From: Escherichia phage Gluttony_ev152
DNA: 44,825 nucleotides
Sequence record: NC_073087.1
Reading direction: 5' to 3' (one strand)
The translations under genes were made by a program, and so were the position numbers. Below are positions 2,828 through 42,190 of the stretch, piece by piece. Within the stretch, counting starts at the first letter, position 1. Every line of letters begins with the position of its first letter. The notes under the pieces are model-generated. The model saw nothing but the letters and a program-made list of their open reading frames with translations, was not told the origin of the DNA and searched no databases.

Positions 2828-2871
2828 CGTGTTGTCTCCAGGTATTAAAAAGGGCGTCCAACCGGACACCC

Positions 2872-2900
2872 TTAAGATAATGCAACCAATCTAATTATGC
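2872..2900 (-). terminator. putative intrinsic terminator (minus strand)
   Basis: Forward AAAAAGGGCGTCCAACCGGACACCCTT; on minus strand a GC hairpin followed by T-run, downstream of gene ending at 2908. Confidence 0.4.
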
Positions 2901-2907
2901 AACCAAT

Positions 2908-3938: not shown

Positions 3939-5359
3939 TTGCGCGCCTTTTTAGCTTTCATGTATTCCATCAAGTCGTCCTGTATATCTTGCTTACTGTC
4001 GCGACGCTCGGCGACCAATTCGTCCAGTGTCCCGCGCGCCTGGATAATGTAGACGAATACCGGTCGAGGGTGTCCGGCCTGCATCTGGCGAACCGGCCCG
4101 ATACGTTCAACGATCTGCGAAAAGTGCTCAAAGTTCCAGGTATCGGAGAAGATTGCCAGGTGATGTCCGCCGTCCTGCAAGTTAAGGCCGTGGCCTGCCG
4201 ATGCCGGGTGTGCAAACATGATGGGGATCTCGCCTCTGTTCCACGCTTCCATATCCTTATTGCCCTGCTTACCCTTACCCAACGCGACGCCGTGCGGAAA
4301 TTTCTTCTTAAGACGTGCCAGGTCATGCTTATACTGATACGCAACGAGCAACGGCGCGCCGTTCAACTCCTCCACGATACTTTCCAGCGCGTCCAGTTTG
4401 GCGTCGTGAATCTTCACCCACTCGTCGGTCCTTTCGCCGTCTTCGTCCACCTTATACACAGCGCCGGAAGCAAGCTGAAGGCACTTAATTGTCTTAGATG
4501 CCGCGTTCGCCGCTTCCACTGTTCCGCTTTCCAGTTCGGCGAATAGCTCCGCTTCGAACTGGTCATAAATCTTGCGGGCTTTCTTCGGCAGGTCCACAAC
4601 AACAGGCGTATAGATTGGCTTGTCGCACCCGAAGTATTCAGCCGCGTCAACGGTGAGGGATACATCTGACAGACGTTGTTGTATTTCTTTCTCGGAGTTC
4701 TTTAGCGGGGCGTGCTGCATAGTGAAGCTGCCAGGCTTAACCGGCTTGCTAATGAACCAGCGATCGGTAAATGCCTTATAGCTACTGCCGAGGCGTTCGC
4801 CACCGTCGACAAACCACGTCTGACCCCATAAGTCTTTAAGCCCGTTTGGCGCTGGTGTGCCGGTAAGGTTAATCCAGCGCTTGACGTGTTTATGTGCAAT
4901 CGCTGCCAGTGCGCGGGCGCGCTTGCTCCCCTGCTTGCTACGATAGCCTTTCAGCTTAGTCGATTCATCGGCAACAACGACCGTAAAGGGCCACGCATCG
5001 CCGTAATAGTCGACCAGCCACTCAACCACATCGTAGTTAACACAAACCACGTTAGCGTCGCTCTCAAGCGCGGCAATACGGTACTTCTCCGGTCCGGTGC
5101 CGTCTACGACCAGCAGGGATGAGAACCGCCATTTCTCCTGTTCCGGGGGCCATGTACCCGACGCAACACGCAGCGGGGCCAGCACCAGTACGCGGTCCTC
5201 ATGATGGGACAGGACGCCAGTCTGGAACATTTTATTCAGCGCCCACATTGTCGCGCCGGTTTTACCGGATCCCATTGTCGCCCAGATATTACATCGCTTA
5301 TGCTTGAGGATGAACGCGGTTATCAACTTCTGATATTCGCGGCGTCGGAATCTTGCCAT
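3935..5359 (-). CDS. SNF2-family (DEAD/DEAH-like) helicase
   Basis: Walker A GSGKTG, DExx-type VVADEST, LTGTPAPN motif typical of SNF2 helicases; start set at internal ATG (M31 of track ORF) abutting upstream stop. Confidence 0.8.
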   Translation of the reverse strand: MARFRRREYQKLITAFILKHKRCNIWATMGSGKTGATMWALNKMFQTGVLSHHEDRVLVLAPLRVASGTWPPEQEKWRFSSLLVVDGTGPEKYRIAALESDANVVCVNYDVVEWLVDYYGDAWPFTVVVADESTKLKGYRSKQGSKRARALAAIAHKHVKRWINLTGTPAPNGLKDLWGQTWFVDGGERLGSSYKAFTDRWFISKPVKPGSFTMQHAPLKNSEKEIQQRLSDVSLTVDAAEYFGCDKPIYTPVVVDLPKKARKIYDQFEAELFAELESGTVEAANAASKTIKCLQLASGAVYKVDEDGERTDEWVKIHDAKLDALESIVEELNGAPLLVAYQYKHDLARLKKKFPHGVALGKGKQGNKDMEAWNRGEIPIMFAHPASAGHGLNLQDGGHHLAIFSDTWNFEHFSQIVERIGPVRQMQAGHPRPVFVYIIQARGTLDELVAERRDSKQDIQDDLMEYMKAKKARK

Positions 5360-5363
5360 GTCG

Positions 5364-5582
5364 TTATTCCGCCTTTTTCCAGACTTCGGTTTCACTGTTC
5401 CAGTTCCTTTTTGTAGCGTCGTAGTTGGTGGCGTGTCCGATGTGCACACCGGTAGCCCGGAAGCTCTTAAATTTTTGCCAGCACACCGTCAACGGCAGCG
5501 GATCATTCATGCCCGCGATAAACCATACGCGATCGCCCGGTTTACATTCGCCCAGCTTGGTGAGTCGGTAATGTTCTTTCAT
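5364..5582 (-). CDS. hypothetical protein
   Basis: Track ORF 5364..5597 begins at a TTG; ATG at 5582 has GGGAGA 7 nt upstream. Confidence 0.45.
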   Translation of the reverse strand: MKEHYRLTKLGECKPGDRVWFIAGMNDPLPLTVCWQKFKSFRATGVHIGHATNYDATKRNWNSETEVWKKAE

Positions 5583-5839: not shown

Positions 5840-6118
5840 CTATGCGACCAATTCAGCAACCAATAAATCGCAGTCGGATATGTTGTCGATAACGCGAACG
5901 TCAGCACCGCGGCGGGCCATTCGATCATGTTCACGTACCTGGTGCGGCTTAGGTTTTCCTCCGGGGCGCTTCACTTCGACGAACACTATTTTGCCGTTGA
6001 TGATAATAATCAGGTCGGGCGCACCCGCGCGCCCCTCCCATGCCAGTTTTCGGCAGAATCCGCCGACCTCTTTCACCCGTTTCATCAGGTGACTTTGAAT
6101 CTTGCCTTCTGGTGTCAT
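5840..6118 (-). CDS. VRR-NUC domain nuclease
   Basis: PDLIIIINGKIVFVEVKRPGG fits the PD-(D/E)XK VRR-NUC signature; ATG overlaps the polymerase stop (TAATG). Confidence 0.65.
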   Translation of the reverse strand: MTPEGKIQSHLMKRVKEVGGFCRKLAWEGRAGAPDLIIIINGKIVFVEVKRPGGKPKPHQVREHDRMARRGADVRVIDNISDCDLLVAELVA

Positions 6119-12180: not shown

Positions 12181-12376
12181 GGTATATCTCCGATTGGTTA
12201 AGTTTAGGTGTCGGCAGTTAACTTCGTCGGTGGCCTTAACATATTGCCAGGTTACGCGTTCTCCCGTTCGGGTAGTGGACCTGGTTATATAATCACGGTT
12301 GGGAATCCTGACACTTCGATCCGGCCCCTGCGTTGCCCCTCTCCAGTTTGCGTCCTGCATCCTGTCGACGGAGTGA

Positions 12377-12406
12377 ATGATAGATTGGTTGCAGGATGGG
12401 TGTCAA
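12377..12406 (-). promoter_or_regulatory. leftward promoter candidate, TTGACA-N18-TATCAT
   Basis: Consensus -35 and near-consensus -10 on minus strand, TGCAACCAAT in spacer; about 200 nt upstream of first leftward gene. Confidence 0.55.
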
Positions 12407-12416
12407 CAACTAATTT

Positions 12417-12454
12417 CAAAAAAAAAAGCGCCGAGGCAAAATGCGACGGCGCTA
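12417..12454 (-). terminator. intrinsic terminator (minus strand) upstream of leftward promoter
   Basis: Forward A10-AGCGCCG...CGGCGCT; on minus strand hairpin followed by T10. Confidence 0.5.
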
Positions 12455-12523
12455 ACCAATAAGAGACAATGAGACGAGAATTATTATTACACGCGTGCGC
12501 GCCCGTTTCAATATCCAAAGGAT

Positions 12524-12552
12524 TTGACACCGTGCAGTTTTGGGTGTAGTTT
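12524..12552 (+). promoter_or_regulatory. rightward promoter candidate, TTGACA-N17-TAGTTT
   Basis: Consensus -35 with weaker -10; followed by inverted repeat TTGGTcattAACCAA and GAGGG RBS of HTH gene. Confidence 0.45.
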
Positions 12553-12583: not shown

Positions 12584-12913
12584 ATGAATGTAAACGACGC
12601 AATCGAAATGTTAACGAAGACTGTTTGCAGTGAGACAAGCCGGTCATGGGCATACACCGATGCCGTGGGGGCTGTGTTATTTGAAATCGAACGACTGCGG
12701 CTTACCGAAAAAGAATTGCGCGCCAGGCTGGAACTACTCAACGGTACAGCAGCAAGCAAGCTGCAAAAACACAATGAAGAAATGGAAGAATACAAAAAGC
12801 AGGTTATCCGTTTGCGCGCCGAGGGCAAATCTTGGGCGATGATTGCCGAGTTGACCGGAATTAATCAGAGCACAGTGCGCTCCTGGGTACGCAATAATAA
12901 AACTTCTAAGTAA
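12584..12913 (+). CDS. helix-turn-helix DNA-binding protein (putative regulator)
   Basis: C-terminal GKSWAMIAELTGINQSTVRSWV resembles resolvase/sigma-region-4-type HTH; first rightward gene after divergent promoter. Confidence 0.65.
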   Translation: MNVNDAIEMLTKTVCSETSRSWAYTDAVGAVLFEIERLRLTEKELRARLELLNGTAASKLQKHNEEMEEYKKQVIRLRAEGKSWAMIAELTGINQSTVRSWVRNNKTSK

Positions 12914-12923
12914 GGCCACGGCA

Positions 12924-15188
12924 ATGAGCTTGATTAAATTCGCTGTAACAAAACCCGCTAAAAAAGGCGAAAAAGCCAGGGCGGAAAACTTCCAGATGAC
13001 GACCGATGAGTTTTTCGAATTTATCAAAGATGCGAAAGAAATATCCTCGGTGCATATCAACAAGACGGAAGATAAAGCCGAGTATGCGCGCCGCAAGCGT
13101 AAGGCCGATGGCATCGTGGCGTATACCAGTGACGGATTGCGCCGCAAGACCAGTGCCGTGGACCGCTCGATCCTGTTCTTCGATATTGACCGCACCGACA
13201 CCCGCACCCTGCGCCGCTGCCGTAAGGCGTTCATCGACGCGGGTCTGGAACACGTATTTCACACCACCACCGGCGACCGCCACCCGCTGAAGGGCGGCAC
13301 GCGTTGCGCCCGTTTCCTGGTGCTCACTGACAAGCCTGTACCGGCTGAAGACCTGGGCCGCGTCCAGTATGCACTATTACACCAACTGGGCCTGTCAGAT
13401 GTGGACTTCGACGATTGCACGAAAGACACTAACCGCCTTATGTACCTACCACACCAGCAGTCTGTTATTAAGTGCCACTATGGCAAGCGCGCCCGCGTCC
13501 GTCGTCTGCTCCGCCTGGCTGATAAGCTGGGAGTGGAAAAAGAGGAAGTACGCCGCGAGCTTACCCAGGGCGACGACGCAGTGGCAGACGGCATTCTGGA
13601 CTGGTGCTTCCAGGCCGGATTCGAGGAGTTATCTTCTGGTCGCGGTTATGAAGTGCCGTGCCCGAACGAACATCTGCACAGCGGCGAAGGGTCGACGGCT
13701 ATCATGGTCAAGGATGGCGAGATCCGTTTCAAGTGTATGCACACCGGCAACGAGTGTTGCTCGGAGCTAAATAGACACCAGCACCTTGCGCTACGTCTCA
13801 TCGGGATACCGGACCACCTGAACGTCGAACCGCACAACATGTCACGTAAGCAAATCGCCGCCATCCTCCCAGGGCTGGACGACGAGGAAGTCGAATCCTT
13901 ATATGAACATATTGTTGATGCGGTTGGCGACGGCGAAGAATACGGCGTGTGCACCGATGCGGATCTGGATAACGAGCCGGTTGCGCTGTTCAGTAAGCAC
14001 GACCCGATTATCGAGGGGTTGGTTAACTTTAAATCAACCTGGTATATGGCGGGTGAGTCGAACATCGGTAAATCGTTCTACGTGCTGGGGCAAATGGGTG
14101 CGGTTGCCGCGGGGATTCCGTTCGGTGGCGCGAAGGTCGTCCAGTCTCATTGCTTCTATTTCGACGCGGAAGGTGGCGAAGCCTCTAACCAGCGCAAAGA
14201 AGCATTGCAGATTAAATATGAGCACGACCTGGACAAGCTGCACATTATCGATCTGCAATCACGCGGCTGGGATATCACCAGCAAATCCGGCTTGCGTGAA
14301 GTTATCAGCTTCATCAACCGCACCGCTAACGGCGAGCCGGTTGGCCTGGTGGCGTTCGACTCACTCAACCAGACTGTTGCGCTGCGGTCCGCCGATGCAA
14401 AACCGTTCGACGAGAATAACGCCAGCGATATGGGTGAAGTGGTCAAAGCGCTGAAGGCCATTGCGGAAAATACAGGCGGCAGTGCGGGCGTCATCCACCA
14501 CCCGGCGAAGGGTGCAAACGGCAGCAGATCTCCCCGTGGGTCCGGCGCGCTGCATGGCGCTGTCGATTCTGCGTTCTTCCTGGAGCAACCGGACGACAAT
14601 CAGCCGGGCCAATTGAACCTGTATCACGAAAAGGCACGTAACGGCATCAAGCAAGCGCCGCGCGGCTTCGTCCTGCTCAAGTGCAAGGTTAAGGTGGATC
14701 TCCGCAAGTCCGAAGCGTTCGAATCACACCAGTCCACCAGCACCGGGCCTGACTTCGGCGACGTGGTTGCCGGTTGGGACGTCAAGCCAATTGCATCCAC
14801 GCCACGCGACGAGACTCTTTATCTCGTACCGGTCGCCCTGGCACCGTTCGCCATCGAACAGGCGAAGGCCGCGGGCAAGGCCGCAGTTAAGGATGAGAAC
14901 GCCGCAGGACCGCGCAATGAAAAAGAGAAAGTGCTTTATGCGGCACTGGAAAAACTGATGGAAGATAACCCGGACCATACCGGATTCAGTAAATCGGCAA
15001 TTGTCCGCCAGGCGGGATTGGCAAAAGGTGGCACATCGACGAAGGCAATAGACGATATGGTCGAGCGCGGCGTGCTTGGGTTTTACACAGACCCACACAC
15101 CGGGGCCATCTATGGGTCGTCTAATATCGTCATCAAAACGAATATACCCATCACGCTTTCGGCTACCGATGACGACCTGAAAGATTAA
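12924..15188 (+). CDS. primase/helicase (RecA-like P-loop ATPase domain)
   Basis: 754 aa; Walker A GESNIGKS; IHHPAKG motif typical of RepA/AAA_25-type helicase domains; N-terminal region may be the primase part. Confidence 0.8.
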   Translation: MSLIKFAVTKPAKKGEKARAENFQMTTDEFFEFIKDAKEISSVHINKTEDKAEYARRKRKADGIVAYTSDGLRRKTSAVDRSILFFDIDRTDTRTLRRCRKAFIDAGLEHVFHTTTGDRHPLKGGTRCARFLVLTDKPVPAEDLGRVQYALLHQLGLSDVDFDDCTKDTNRLMYLPHQQSVIKCHYGKRARVRRLLRLADKLGVEKEEVRRELTQGDDAVADGILDWCFQAGFEELSSGRGYEVPCPNEHLHSGEGSTAIMVKDGEIRFKCMHTGNECCSELNRHQHLALRLIGIPDHLNVEPHNMSRKQIAAILPGLDDEEVESLYEHIVDAVGDGEEYGVCTDADLDNEPVALFSKHDPIIEGLVNFKSTWYMAGESNIGKSFYVLGQMGAVAAGIPFGGAKVVQSHCFYFDAEGGEASNQRKEALQIKYEHDLDKLHIIDLQSRGWDITSKSGLREVISFINRTANGEPVGLVAFDSLNQTVALRSADAKPFDENNASDMGEVVKALKAIAENTGGSAGVIHHPAKGANGSRSPRGSGALHGAVDSAFFLEQPDDNQPGQLNLYHEKARNGIKQAPRGFVLLKCKVKVDLRKSEAFESHQSTSTGPDFGDVVAGWDVKPIASTPRDETLYLVPVALAPFAIEQAKAAGKAAVKDENAAGPRNEKEKVLYAALEKLMEDNPDHTGFSKSAIVRQAGLAKGGTSTKAIDDMVERGVLGFYTDPHTGAIYGSSNIVIKTNIPITLSATDDDLKD

Positions 15189-15265
15189 ATCCTGCGCGCA
15201 TTGGTTGCCGATATGGGAATTCCCATATCGCTAAAAGGTTAAATTTTGCGCGCATTGGTTGCCAT
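15189..15265. promoter_or_regulatory. direct repeat - 20-bp perfect palindrome - direct repeat, candidate protein-binding or origin element
   Basis: TGCGCGCATTGGTTGCC twice flanking GATATGGGAATTCCCATATC, immediately after primase/helicase stop. Confidence 0.4.
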
Positions 15266-15348
15266 TTTGAGTGTTTTTATCAGGTCGTATTGGTTGCCGT
15301 GTAGTGTGAATATAGTGAATAGTTATGCAGTTTTGTTGCATAAAGTAA

Positions 15349-15510
15349 GCGGGACAAAAAGCGGGACAAACAAGGGGCGGGACAAAGCGGGACAGCACCC
15401 CCGTCCCGCCCCTGATGGCGCGGCCTGGAGAGGAGCGGGACAGGCGGGACAACCCCCAGTCTTTCAGACTAGACGGGGGTCAATGGCCCCCCTCGTCTGA
15501 GACTGAATAA
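15349..15510 (+). repeat. noncoding cassette A: GCGGGACA direct-repeat array plus conserved 53-nt element
   Basis: Six direct and one inverted copy of GCGGGACA(A/G) within about 100 bp, followed by AGTCTTTCAGACTAGACGGGGGTCAATGGCCCCCCTCGTCTGAGACTGAATAA (15458-15510). Confidence 0.7.
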
Positions 15511-15665
15511 AATCCGGGGATTGCAAAATACACGGCAGCATGATGCGAATTGCGGTCGACGATGAACTAGGCAACCAATGCGAGTTGCATTATGCTGAGT
15601 GAAAAATGCGGTTTGCAGTCGCAGCAGATAGCGATCAACTTTTTCATGCGCGTGATTAATATTGG

Positions 15666-15694
15666 TTGCGCCCAGCCTGGCACCTTGCTATATT
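15666..15694 (+). promoter_or_regulatory. promoter candidate, TTGCGC-N17-TATATT
   Basis: Hexamers with 17-nt spacer; ATTGGTTGC motif overlapping -35 and again immediately after -10; leader TATATTGGTTGCACACCAACATGAGGAC nearly identical to the leader at 26033-26061 on the minus strand. Confidence 0.55.
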
Positions 15695-15722
15695 GGTTGC
15701 ACACCAACATGAGGACTGAACA

Positions 15723-16028
15723 ATGAAAGCAATTATCTGGAATTACGCAATGGCGATGGCGAAGCTGTACGAAGCAAAACACACAAACGGCAACGCAGAC
15801 GACGCGCGCCAGGCTGTCATCCTGGCCCAGCAGGGAATCATGAACGCGTTCGACGATATGTTTGCCAGCCTGGACGAACTGGAACCTCTGCGCGTGGCAA
15901 TCTGCGAATATGCTATGGCATTTGCCCGTGAACGCCTGGCGTATCGCTTCGGGATCGGCGAGACGGCAGTGACAAACGTTGCCCGGATTAAAGCCCAGCG
16001 TGAGCTATTCGCCCAGCTTGCGAAATAA
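15723..16028 (+). CDS. hypothetical protein (101 aa)
   Basis: Track ORF with GAGGAC RBS and upstream TTGCGC-N17-TATATT promoter. Confidence 0.55.
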   Translation: MKAIIWNYAMAMAKLYEAKHTNGNADDARQAVILAQQGIMNAFDDMFASLDELEPLRVAICEYAMAFARERLAYRFGIGETAVTNVARIKAQRELFAQLAK

Positions 16029-16037
16029 GAGGCCAAA

Positions 16038-16307
16038 ATGACCCGTAGACGCGCAAAACAGCTTTCGTGGCATATCCCCCTGCATTGCATACGAATATGG
16101 GCTAAGAATGCGAATGAGGGGGATTCTGTATTCTGGTGCTATCGCGATGATGTGAAGCCGTTAACGCAGACTCGCTACTTGCACCAGTTCGCAGCAAAGC
16201 ACGGATTCTATGTGCGGACCTCCTTGCAACCAATGGGGATCCGTATTACATTACGCCGGAAGCCCGCCGTTGAGCGGGTAGGCAAACACTGGAGACTGAG
16301 AAAATGA
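16038..16307 (+). CDS. hypothetical protein (89 aa)
   Basis: Track ORF, tight spacing with neighbours. Confidence 0.5.
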   Translation: MTRRRAKQLSWHIPLHCIRIWAKNANEGDSVFWCYRDDVKPLTQTRYLHQFAAKHGFYVRTSLQPMGIRITLRRKPAVERVGKHWRLRK

Positions 16308-25268: not shown

Positions 25269-26033
25269 TTAGCGAGGAATGCCGCAAATCTCGTTGAGTG
25301 TTTTCACATCCAGCGCCACCGCCGTGGATTTTGGCTTGTCCGGGTAAGGGATGAATTGCTCAACTTCAGGCCATGCCTTGATCAGCTTCTTATCGGTATT
25401 GTGCATATCCAGCACGCCGGTAACAGTTAGTTTGAACGCGTCATACTTAGCTCGCAACTCGCGTCGGGCCTTGTCGTTACGGTCCAGGCGCTTGCAGAAA
25501 TCATGATCCGCCGGAAAATCAGCACGGCAGCGGGGCTTATAGATCGGCAGCGCTTTCCCATCCTCGTCCAATTCGCACACAGAAGCCAGCATAACTTCTT
25601 CGTACCCAGGCACAATATCGCCGAGATCGGGAGACAGCTTATTCATGTATTTATATTCCCAGTATCCGCGATGTACGCGGTATCGGAGACCGTCACCGCT
25701 CAAGGACAAGGTGCGAACATTTCCTCCTGCGTTGATTTCGAAAGTGGCGTCGTAAACTCGGTCGATACCTTTTGGGCGGTCGTGGTTATAGTAATACGTC
25801 GCCTTGTTGGTGTAGACGCTTACGCCGTACATCTGCGACTTGTCGTCGTGGATTAACTGTATATGCTCGCGTAGCGCGGCGAACGTGCGAATGCCTTTTG
25901 GCATACAGTCCATCGTAATTGCGTACGCCAGGTCGCGAGAGTCCATCATGATGGATTTGGCTTCGGTCGCGATTTCGTGGTCGCGCAGGATGTTAGCCAG
26001 AATCTGGTTTTTAATGTCTTTCGTCAGTCTCAT
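25269..26033 (-). CDS. hypothetical protein, reverse-oriented moron candidate
   Basis: 254-aa product from internal ATG with GAGGA RBS; own minus-strand promoter TTGCAA-N18-TATATT (26056-26085); lies between rightward spanin terminator and rightward scaffold gene. Confidence 0.55.
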   Translation of the reverse strand: MRLTKDIKNQILANILRDHEIATEAKSIMMDSRDLAYAITMDCMPKGIRTFAALREHIQLIHDDKSQMYGVSVYTNKATYYYNHDRPKGIDRVYDATFEINAGGNVRTLSLSGDGLRYRVHRGYWEYKYMNKLSPDLGDIVPGYEEVMLASVCELDEDGKALPIYKPRCRADFPADHDFCKRLDRNDKARRELRAKYDAFKLTVTGVLDMHNTDKKLIKAWPEVEQFIPYPDKPKSTAVALDVKTLNEICGIPR

Positions 26034-26055
26034 TTGTGTGTCCTCATGGTTGGTG

Positions 26056-26085
26056 TGCAACCAATATAGTGCAACCAATATGCGG
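26056..26085 (-). promoter_or_regulatory. promoter candidate for reverse-oriented ORF, TTGCAA-N18-TATATT
   Basis: Minus-strand hexamers with TTGGTTGCAC abutting -10 and repeated after it; drives ORF 25269..26033. Confidence 0.55.
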
Positions 26086-31655: not shown

Positions 31656-31973
31656 GCGGGACAAAACGGGACGTCCCGTTTTGTCCCACCCCTGTGAAAC
31701 TGCATACCTACTCACTTCCATTGCATAATCTAAAAGCGGGACAAGCGGGACGTCCCGTTTTGTCCCACCCCACAAAAGTGCATACGTATTCGGTTTTCGT
31801 GCATAAAACAAACGGGACAAAAAGCGGGACAAACACTAGGCGGGACAAAGCGGGACAGCACCCCGTCCCCGCCAGTGCTGCCGCGGTTTTCAGCCGATCG
31901 GGACAGCGGGACAGCACCCCAGTCTTTCAGACTAGACGGGGGTCAACGGCCCCCCTCGTCTGAGACTGAATAA
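31656..31973 (+). repeat. noncoding cassette B: GGGACA repeat array with two 30-bp palindromes plus conserved 53-nt element
   Basis: Perfect palindrome GGGACAAAACGGGACGTCCCGTTTTGTCCC (31658-31687), near-copy at 31738-31766, about 10 direct GCGGGACA copies, then the same 53-nt element as cassette A with one substitution (31921-31973). Confidence 0.7.
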
Positions 31974-42111: not shown

Positions 42112-42190
42112 GGTATCATCCCCTATATTTGGTTGAGTTTTAGTATTACACCGCTCAACCAGGATTGCAACCAATTACGAGGATTTAGCT

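Follow-up and report, generated by a model that had tools for sequence, protein, structure and literature searches.

The window, that is, the whole 44,825-nucleotide stretch of Escherichia phage Gluttony_ev152 (NC_073087.1), represents an apparently complete 44.8-kb genome that we assign to the genus Dhillonvirus, which comprises HK578/SO-1-like coliphages (siphoviruses of about 44-45 kb). A total of 157 phage records match positions 14700-15800, mostly at 90-97% identity, and almost all of them are Escherichia phages of this genus. The locus of interest begins at the end of the gene encoding a replicative primase/helicase, an annotation shared by the relatives. The gene is followed by 534 bp of non-coding DNA (15189-15722) and then by small genes as well as the lysis and late genes. 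The intergenic region is conserved at ~90% throughout among close relatives, and conservation alone can therefore not single out individual boxes. A sigma-70 promoter scan of 14900-16100 returned zero sites, and an Rfam search of 14900-16000 at a permissive E-value yielded nothing at gathering score and two sub-threshold chance matches only. The literature searched on Dhillonviruses or SO-1 contained no origin, promoter or repeat analysis.

Immediately behind the stop codon, a direct repeat, a palindrome and a second copy of the repeat follow one another. This architecture is real and far beyond chance. The 17-mer TGCGCGCATTGGTTGCC occurs exactly twice in the genome, and with up to 3 mismatches allowed it gave 3 matches against 0.38 expected, a number reached by none of 100 shuffles. 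A reading of the sequence alone had already recognised the arrangement, the two 17-mers and a 20-bp palindrome, and had placed the second 17-mer correctly at 15247-15263. Its first copy has to be moved from 15197-15213 to 15193-15209 (it had been set 4 bp too far right), and the palindrome GATATGGGAATTCCCATATC, a 20-mer unique in the genome, from 15214-15233 to 15210-15229. The description was also incomplete, as it missed that the core of the repeat is dispersed and that the repeat is longer. Indeed, the true direct repeat spans 33 bp, with 88% identity between the copies at 15177-15209 and 15231-15263, and its first copy starts within the coding sequence. Likewise, the 20-mer extends by a flanking C and G to a perfect 22-bp palindrome. 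In the 44.8 kb, only one other perfect palindrome has arms longer than 7 bp, and the chance expectation for such palindromes is ~0.01 (44825 x 4^-11). Further copies of the repeat core lie at 15286-15298 (+), 15570-15582 (-), 15661 and 15692. All features are listed in Table 1.

Table 1. Features at and around the repeat-palindrome-repeat locus of Gluttony_ev152 (window coordinates).
Feature	Position	Strand	Details
Gene for 109-aa protein	12584..12913	+	C-terminal Hin/sigma-70-region-4-like HTH; Pfam HTH_23 2e-07, Sigma70_r4_2 2e-06; PHROG 9366
Primase/helicase gene, 754 aa	12924..15188	+	Pfam AAA_25 6e-19; PHROG 3228 replicative helicase-primase
Primase/helicase stop codon	15186-15188	+	TAA
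33-bp repeat, copy 1	15177..15209	+	last 4 codons (L-K-D-stop), 17-mer TGCGCGCATTGGTTGCC, box 1 (15201-15208)
Perfect 22-bp palindrome CGATATGGGAATTCCCATATCG	15209..15230	.	20-mer plus flanking C and G
33-bp repeat, copy 2	15231..15263	+	box 2 at 15255-15262; corresponds to the single copy in short-form phages
Third box, CGYATTGGTTGCC subclass	15286..15298	+	kept in all aligned relatives
AT-rich stretch, 70% A+T	15300..15346	.	37 bp right of second repeat
199-bp module	15313..15509	+	six direct GCGGGACA iterons (15349-15451), inverted GTCCCGC (15403-15410), GC-rich hairpin (15457-15505)
Inverted CGCATTGGTTGCC box	15570..15582	-	brackets the iteron module together with three direct copies
Two boxes on sigma-70-like promoter TTGCGC-17-TATATT	15661-15669 and 15692-15700	+	upstream of gene starting 15723
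Second module copy ('region A')	31776..31972	+	85% identity, direct orientation, 16.4 kb away

Alignment of the sequence after the stop codon from 17 Dhillonviruses revealed that the first repeat and the palindrome behave as a clean 54-bp indel, which is present in eight phages (including Gluttony_ev152, bob and CS16) and absent from nine (including HK578, SO-1 and SSL-2009a). The 54-bp unit consists of 33 bp of duplicated native sequence and 21 bp of non-duplicated palindrome, the native part being the last four codons of the primase/helicase plus the box TGCGCGC-ATTGGTTGC-C. Among the 157 GenBank records, about 70 (~45%) carry the palindrome insert at this site. Copy number varies as well: HK578, SO-1 and SSL-2009a have no unit and Gluttony_ev152 has one, PNS1 has two in tandem (L233, 460-620), and Teewinot (L232, 370-700) harbours a rearranged array of about 5-6 units, several of them with deletions, whose junctions fall at GG/GGG microhomologies within or beside the palindrome. 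Presence and absence are intermixed among phages with 97-99% identical primase/helicase (L010 with the unit, L013 and L014 without), and such a pattern would be expected if the 33-bp repeats recombine or slip. Since viable isolates carry 0 to about 6 copies, the unit is dispensable and does not hold an indispensable origin core. The two parts of the repeat evolve differently. In the downstream copy the formerly coding part CTAAAAGGTTAA drifts between phages (AAAGGT, AAATGT, GACGAT), whereas the segment TTTGCGCGCATTGGTTGCC is nearly invariant in both repeat copies of the alignment, which argues that selection acts on the box.

We also observed that the primase/helicase frame runs on past the TAA as ILRALVA-DMGIPIS-LKG-stop (15144-15290); as 54 is divisible by three, the unit keeps the frame open. 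Stop-codon read-through yielding ILRALVADMGIPISLKG was considered, but we found nothing in its support.

The palindrome, for its part, is widespread. The same 22-24 bp occur at 100% identity and within unrelated flanks in unrelated temperate phages and prophages, such as 666R9, PhiR5_2, PPompW and O157 prophages (between a cargo gene and hokD), as well as in the nin region of Hafnia phage Pocitis76. The arms GATATGGG-N4-CCCATATC were found in 1001 of 5426 complete E. coli genomes at up to 15 matched places per genome, which corresponds to up to about 7 sites as both strands can match. In addition, at least 120 IMG/VR contigs carry the palindrome in at least 22 flank contexts. In the commonest of these, seen in 83 of 119 viral contigs, the palindrome separates a conserved hokD module from variable upstream cargo (a paa or ORF6N gene). 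This version was seen in L036, L039 and L043, lambdoid E. coli prophages including O157:H7 EDL933, and its right flank resembles a KilA-N remnant, which suggests a recombination junction at the palindrome.

Flanking direct repeats accompany the palindrome only in the Dhillonvirus context (1 of the 22). On these grounds we rejected a transposable element with target-site duplication, for which 33 bp would moreover far exceed the usual duplications, and a CRISPR-like repeat duplication, whose lengths do not fit and for which the other 21 contexts offer no flanking repeats either.

In five contexts the palindrome is part of the reading frame of a KilA-N-domain gene and codes, within the domain, for DMGIPIS amid markedly different neighbouring protein sequence; its arms stay identical in these in-frame cases (L035 923-1696 (-), L080, L071, L100, L109, L149). 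A degenerate scan for any 20-mer coding for DMGIPI recovered almost only GATATGGG-NNNN-CCCATATC, with the centres AATT, AATC/GATT or GATC, and non-symmetric synonymous versions were rare. The rarity of asymmetric synonyms indicates that the arms are constrained at the nucleotide level while the central four bases are free, and constrained arms around a free centre are expected of a hairpin closed by a 4-nt loop, or of a site bound by a dimer. The majority of Dhillonvirus variants conform to this (GGGGATTCCC, GGGAATCCCC), and a few have uncompensated arm mismatches. The predicted RNA hairpin starts 21 nt past the primase/helicase stop codon, has a 9-10-bp stem and a 4-nt loop, and folds with -13.7 kcal/mol on the + strand and -14.3 kcal/mol on the - strand (z about -4.6).

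We found that the repeat core recurs throughout the genome. With 15 copies, ATTGGTTGC far exceeds the 0.59 expected, and 100 shuffles did not approach this count. The 8-mer TTGGTTGC is present in 21 copies in Gluttony_ev152 and in as many in SO-1, where the boxes occupy the corresponding syntenic gaps and are paired alike. A crude gene map leaves 8% of the genome as non-coding DNA, and this fraction contains at least 14 of the 21 boxes (p = 4e-11); several of the remaining seven are intergenic by the annotations of relatives. The boxes are spread over about 10 separate intergenic loci, with about 15 intergenic sites besides the one studied here, and they frequently form pairs spaced by 14-17 or 31-35 bp. 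Over-representation, intergenic promoter-proximal sites and conserved positions, as expected of an operator or promoter box, were thus all found. The box string was found in the literature solely in unrelated sequences, apparently primers. In EE09 (L044, positions 1-10), the terminus reported as 'COS 5-prime ATCTTAAGGG' (PMC10673088) begins 3 nt after a TTGGTTGC box pair and just before a terminator-like hairpin, corresponding to window 2860-2907 (-).

Several boxes overlap sigma-70-like -35 or -10 elements. A TAnnnT hexamer follows 18-19 nt downstream of 4 of the 21 boxes, compared with a background of 3.7% (p = 0.007). At 5856(-), 2899(-), 12384(+) and 15661(+), the TTGC of the box would thereby form a -35 element with the TAnnnT hexamer 18-19 nt on, and the box at 42167(-) reads TTGCAA-16-TAATAC. 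Two sites, 26071/26057(-) and 15661/15692(+), have one box at the -35 element or in the spacer and a second over -10/+1, a layout that appears operator-like, and both then share the leader ACACCAAC(C)ATGAGGAC. The identical box-plus-leader TATATTGGTTGCACACCAAC(C)ATGAGGAC, at 15692-15722 and 26025-26065 (-), stands before unrelated genes and looks like a duplicated expression cassette. The boxes at 26057/26071 and at 42167 precede lone minus-strand genes within the rightward late operon, and such genes require promoters of their own. Six of the 21 boxes are oriented against local transcription. The boxes at 15201, 15255 and 15290 and the inverted box at 15571 share the longer consensus CG(C/T)ATTGGTTGCC, and downstream of these four no -10 element was recognisable.

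Clusters of the box also exist in distant relatives. Among phages whose primase/helicase is 37-45% identical, the viral contig L033 has nine copies of GTTGGTTGC in a non-coding region of ~900 bp (4760-5540) and L034 has six copies of GTTGGCTG (4598-5062), and both clusters straddle the end of the primase/helicase gene; no box cluster was found in the other relatives at this level of identity. These clusters indicate that the position beside the primase/helicase gene is old. They keep a link of the box to replication or replication control open without proving it. L033 also contains two inverted GC-rich segments that are separated by about 250 bp.

We wondered which protein might recognise the box. 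The sole recognisable DNA-binding protein near the locus is a 109-aa protein encoded just upstream of the primase/helicase gene. Its HTH segment, RLRAEG-SW--IAE-TGIN-ST-R-W, is conserved in HK578, and its N-terminal region diverges and reads as coiled-coil-like. This protein is our candidate binder of the TTGGTTGC boxes; that the boxes are bound, which protein binds them and how transcription or replication would be affected are points that we infer from sequence and comparison. In the box-bearing distant relatives, the 7-kb loci yielded no detectable homologue of the 109-aa protein. The primase/helicase itself shows a winged-helix pattern at its C-terminus, at the level of sequence pattern only. 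Its putative recognition helix does not track the box: Gluttony_ev152 and L033 have the box in common but differ in this helix, and L034, which has the box-like GTTGGCTG, and L025, which has no box, resemble each other in it. A PDB sequence search gave nothing significant, and a single-sequence model (pLDDT 36) was unusable.

To the right of the repeats lies the iteron module, whose second copy sits between the tail chaperone and tape-measure genes. This copy contains no TTGGTTGC box and no copy of the 17-mer or of the palindrome, and the repeat and the palindrome after the primase/helicase gene thus lie outside the A/B duplication. Two more iteron palindromes precede the copy at 31776-31972: a perfect 30-bp palindrome formed by inverted iterons, GGGACAAAACGGGACGTCCCGTTTTGTCCC at 31658-31687, is the longest in the genome, and a near-copy lies at about 31737-31767. 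In region B of EE09 (L044, reverse strand 12340-12524), about 57 bp are missing from the iteron module, apparently through a deletion between repeated GCGGGACAGCACCCC sequences, which points to recombinational instability of the iteron module as well. Covariation analysis of the 199-bp module gave one compensatory pair (term +0.36), among sequences too similar to inform. We consider it possible, although not probable, that the replication origin is located within the 534-bp intergenic region, because an AT-rich stretch and iterons lie there next to the primase/helicase gene. If so, the AT-rich stretch with its GCGGGACA iterons (15300-15510), outside the coordinates of the sequence-only reading, would be a better candidate than the repeat-palindrome-repeat. 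A role of the module as RNA in late transcription is equally open; the pair of module copies resembles P4 ori/crr or paired cis-acting RNA sites.

How, then, is the repeat-palindrome-repeat itself to be explained? The sequence-only reading had proposed a helicase loading site or origin. In such a model, the primase/helicase or another initiator would bind the two 17-mers, the palindrome would extrude or melt and the helicase would be loaded. Several points are in line with this idea: the site adjoins the primase/helicase gene, whose product has the winged-helix-like C-terminus; the direct repeats have an AT-rich stretch suited to unwinding and iterons within 100 bp; distant relatives keep box clusters after the same gene; and the SO-1 record flags the region as repeats of 'possible' function. 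However, about half of the viable isolates lack the first repeat together with the palindrome, the copy number ranges from 0 to about 6, the box recurs at about 15 other intergenic sites instead of clustering at a single locus, a dispersal that is kept in SO-1, and the palindrome resides in unrelated temperate phages. Moreover, the spacings of 54 and 35 bp are out of helical phase, the putative recognition helix of the primase/helicase does not follow the box, and TTWTNCACA, the DnaA box, has no match in 15189-15722 and a genome-wide count at chance level. The GC-skew minimum is found elsewhere, at about 12 kb, where it coincides with the switch of the transcription strand and is therefore uninformative for the origin. 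These data speak against the proposal, and we regard an origin or loading site at this element as very unlikely. The idea that the boxes form a packaging (pac) region, where they would bind the small terminase subunit and flank the first cut, is scarcely credible. It draws on at least five independent GenBank records (Pandora71, Zar3M, WFI, BMA1 and PTXU06) that are linearised at window 15618-15622, exactly halfway between two inverted boxes, 15571-15579 and 15661-15669, at a distance of 41 bp from either, and on the report that BF9 is a headful packager (PMC10059673). Against it, the boxes are dispersed over the genome, the terminase genes are 4.5 kb off, EE09 has been assigned cohesive ends at another locus (PMC10673088), and the repeats studied here are 400 bp away from 15618-15622.

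Two further explanations centre on the palindrome. As a terminator or 3'-end stabiliser of the primase/helicase operon, with the repeats being incidental, it would account for a GC-rich hairpin that is stable on both strands so shortly after the stop codon and for the concentration of variation in the 4-nt loop, and in Pocitis76 and one E. coli prophage, too, the palindrome lies 16-18 bp after a stop codon. Yet the lack of a T-run, which the sequence-only reading had remarked upon, holds for either strand: past the stem, the + strand continues with CTAAAAGG and the - strand with GCAACCAA, neither of which is a U-tract, and a terminator scan made no call. Half of the genus manages without the palindrome, uncompensated stem mismatches in some relatives weaken the hairpin to -8.6 to -9.7 kcal/mol, and elsewhere the same sequence is part of KilA-N coding regions. 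We therefore judge this function to be unlikely. Alternatively, the locus might be a neutral footprint, in which the palindrome arrived by illegitimate recombination or with a small mobile element and slippage alters the copy number without functional consequence. The polymorphism among phages with nearly identical primase/helicase, the microhomology junctions of Teewinot and the presence of the palindrome in at least 22 unrelated contexts are all consistent with such a history. Neutrality is nevertheless difficult to reconcile with a box that is conserved in both copies while the formerly coding part drifts, with an insert that persists in about 45% of the records and with palindrome arms that are constrained at the nucleotide level across contexts, which makes this explanation distinctly unlikely.

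We therefore favour, as the probable explanation, that the feature is one unit of a 54-bp tandem repeat of variable number, in which a selected regulatory box surrounds a portable palindrome. This reading builds on the observed anatomy, polymorphism and box distribution and on the portability of the palindrome. The box would be the part under selection, as one of about 21 TTGGTTGC boxes at conserved and nearly all intergenic positions, and it may serve as the binding site of a sequence-specific DNA-binding protein, possibly the 109-aa HTH protein, that controls phage transcription. A regulatory site had been the other option of the sequence-only reading, and for the repeated box it is the best one, as the distribution of the box at promoter-like intergenic sites fits. 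Four CGCATTGGTTGCC-subclass boxes, of which three are direct and the fourth is inverted, bracket the AT-rich and iteron core, and an origin or late-control element is more plausibly located in this core. The palindrome would represent a hairpin or dimer-site cassette common to unrelated enterobacterial phages, whose insertion presumably created the copy-number-variable repeat. At most, it may act as a 3'-end RNA hairpin of the primase/helicase message and drive the slippage or unequal recombination that changes box number. Several points count against the box model, namely the boxes of this locus that lack a recognisable -10 element, the six boxes that face against transcription, the distant relatives in which no homologue of the 109-aa protein was detected and the high conservation of the entire intergenic region; a variable number of binding sites would fit an iteron-type origin, too.

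On a more speculative note, and with considerable doubt, GATATGGG-N4-CCCATATC might be an as yet undescribed micro-element of enterobacterial phages that spreads by itself or is targeted by a nuclease; the palindrome sequence was not found in the literature searched. Such an element would encode DMGIPIS in either orientation, and so tolerate in-frame insertion into KilA-N genes, would mark recombination junctions such as the hokD boundary, and would have seeded, in Dhillonviruses, a variable tandem array by which the number of regulator boxes next to the replication genes is tuned.

For annotation, these data advise against calling the element an origin, for which the neighbouring iteron module and its second copy at 31.8 kb are better candidates. 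The TTGGTTGC box offers a so far undescribed handle on transcription in Dhillonviruses, common therapeutic-candidate coliphages that lack a regulatory map, as it marks about ten candidate promoter or operator regions and is associated with one candidate regulator. Isolates with 0, 1, 2 and about 6 units represent a natural experiment on copy number. Furthermore, the 22-bp palindrome is a cassette common to virulent and temperate coliphages and links both.

The closest annotated counterpart is found in SO-1 (NC_013600), where 'region B' and 'region A' are recorded as repeat_region features that match both copies of the module. Region B occupies the same intergenic region after the helicase-primase gene and is described as having direct, inverted and palindromic repeats, similar to region A, with a 'possible' function. 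SO-1 (L018) differs in having neither the first repeat nor the 22-bp palindrome, and the A/B similarity concerns the 199-bp module and not the element described here.

Three known systems are comparable in part. The satellite phage P4 has an iteron-containing ori and a crr, both bound by the alpha primase-helicase. Similar to P4 ori/crr, the Dhillonvirus genome has short direct repeats beside the primase/helicase gene and a second GCGGGACA cluster kilobases away (15.3 and 31.8 kb). However, this P4-like pattern fits the GCGGGACA module and not the reported repeat, whose box is dispersed at promoters and has a variable number of local copies. In addition, the Dhillonvirus helicase matches AAA_25 (RepA/DnaB-like), whereas P4 alpha is a superfamily 3 helicase. 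Promoter boxes bound by phage regulators are known from the MotA boxes of T4, located at about -30, and from the lambda CII site TTGC-N6-TTGC at -35. Like these, the Dhillonvirus box is a conserved 8-9-mer that lies over the -35 element of sigma-70-like promoters and is followed, at several sites, by a -10 element after 18-19 nt; unlike these, it has another sequence, and many copies are located in the spacer, over -10/+1 or in reversed orientation. Finally, small repeated hairpin elements include the bacterial REP/BIME and the promoter-stem-loop cassettes of T4-type phages. The palindrome resembles them as a short element in many unrelated intergenic places, often right after a stop codon. 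It is distinguished from E. coli REP by its unrelated sequence, by its in-frame occurrence in KilA-N genes as DMGIPIS and by flanking repeats that accompany it solely in the Dhillonvirus context.
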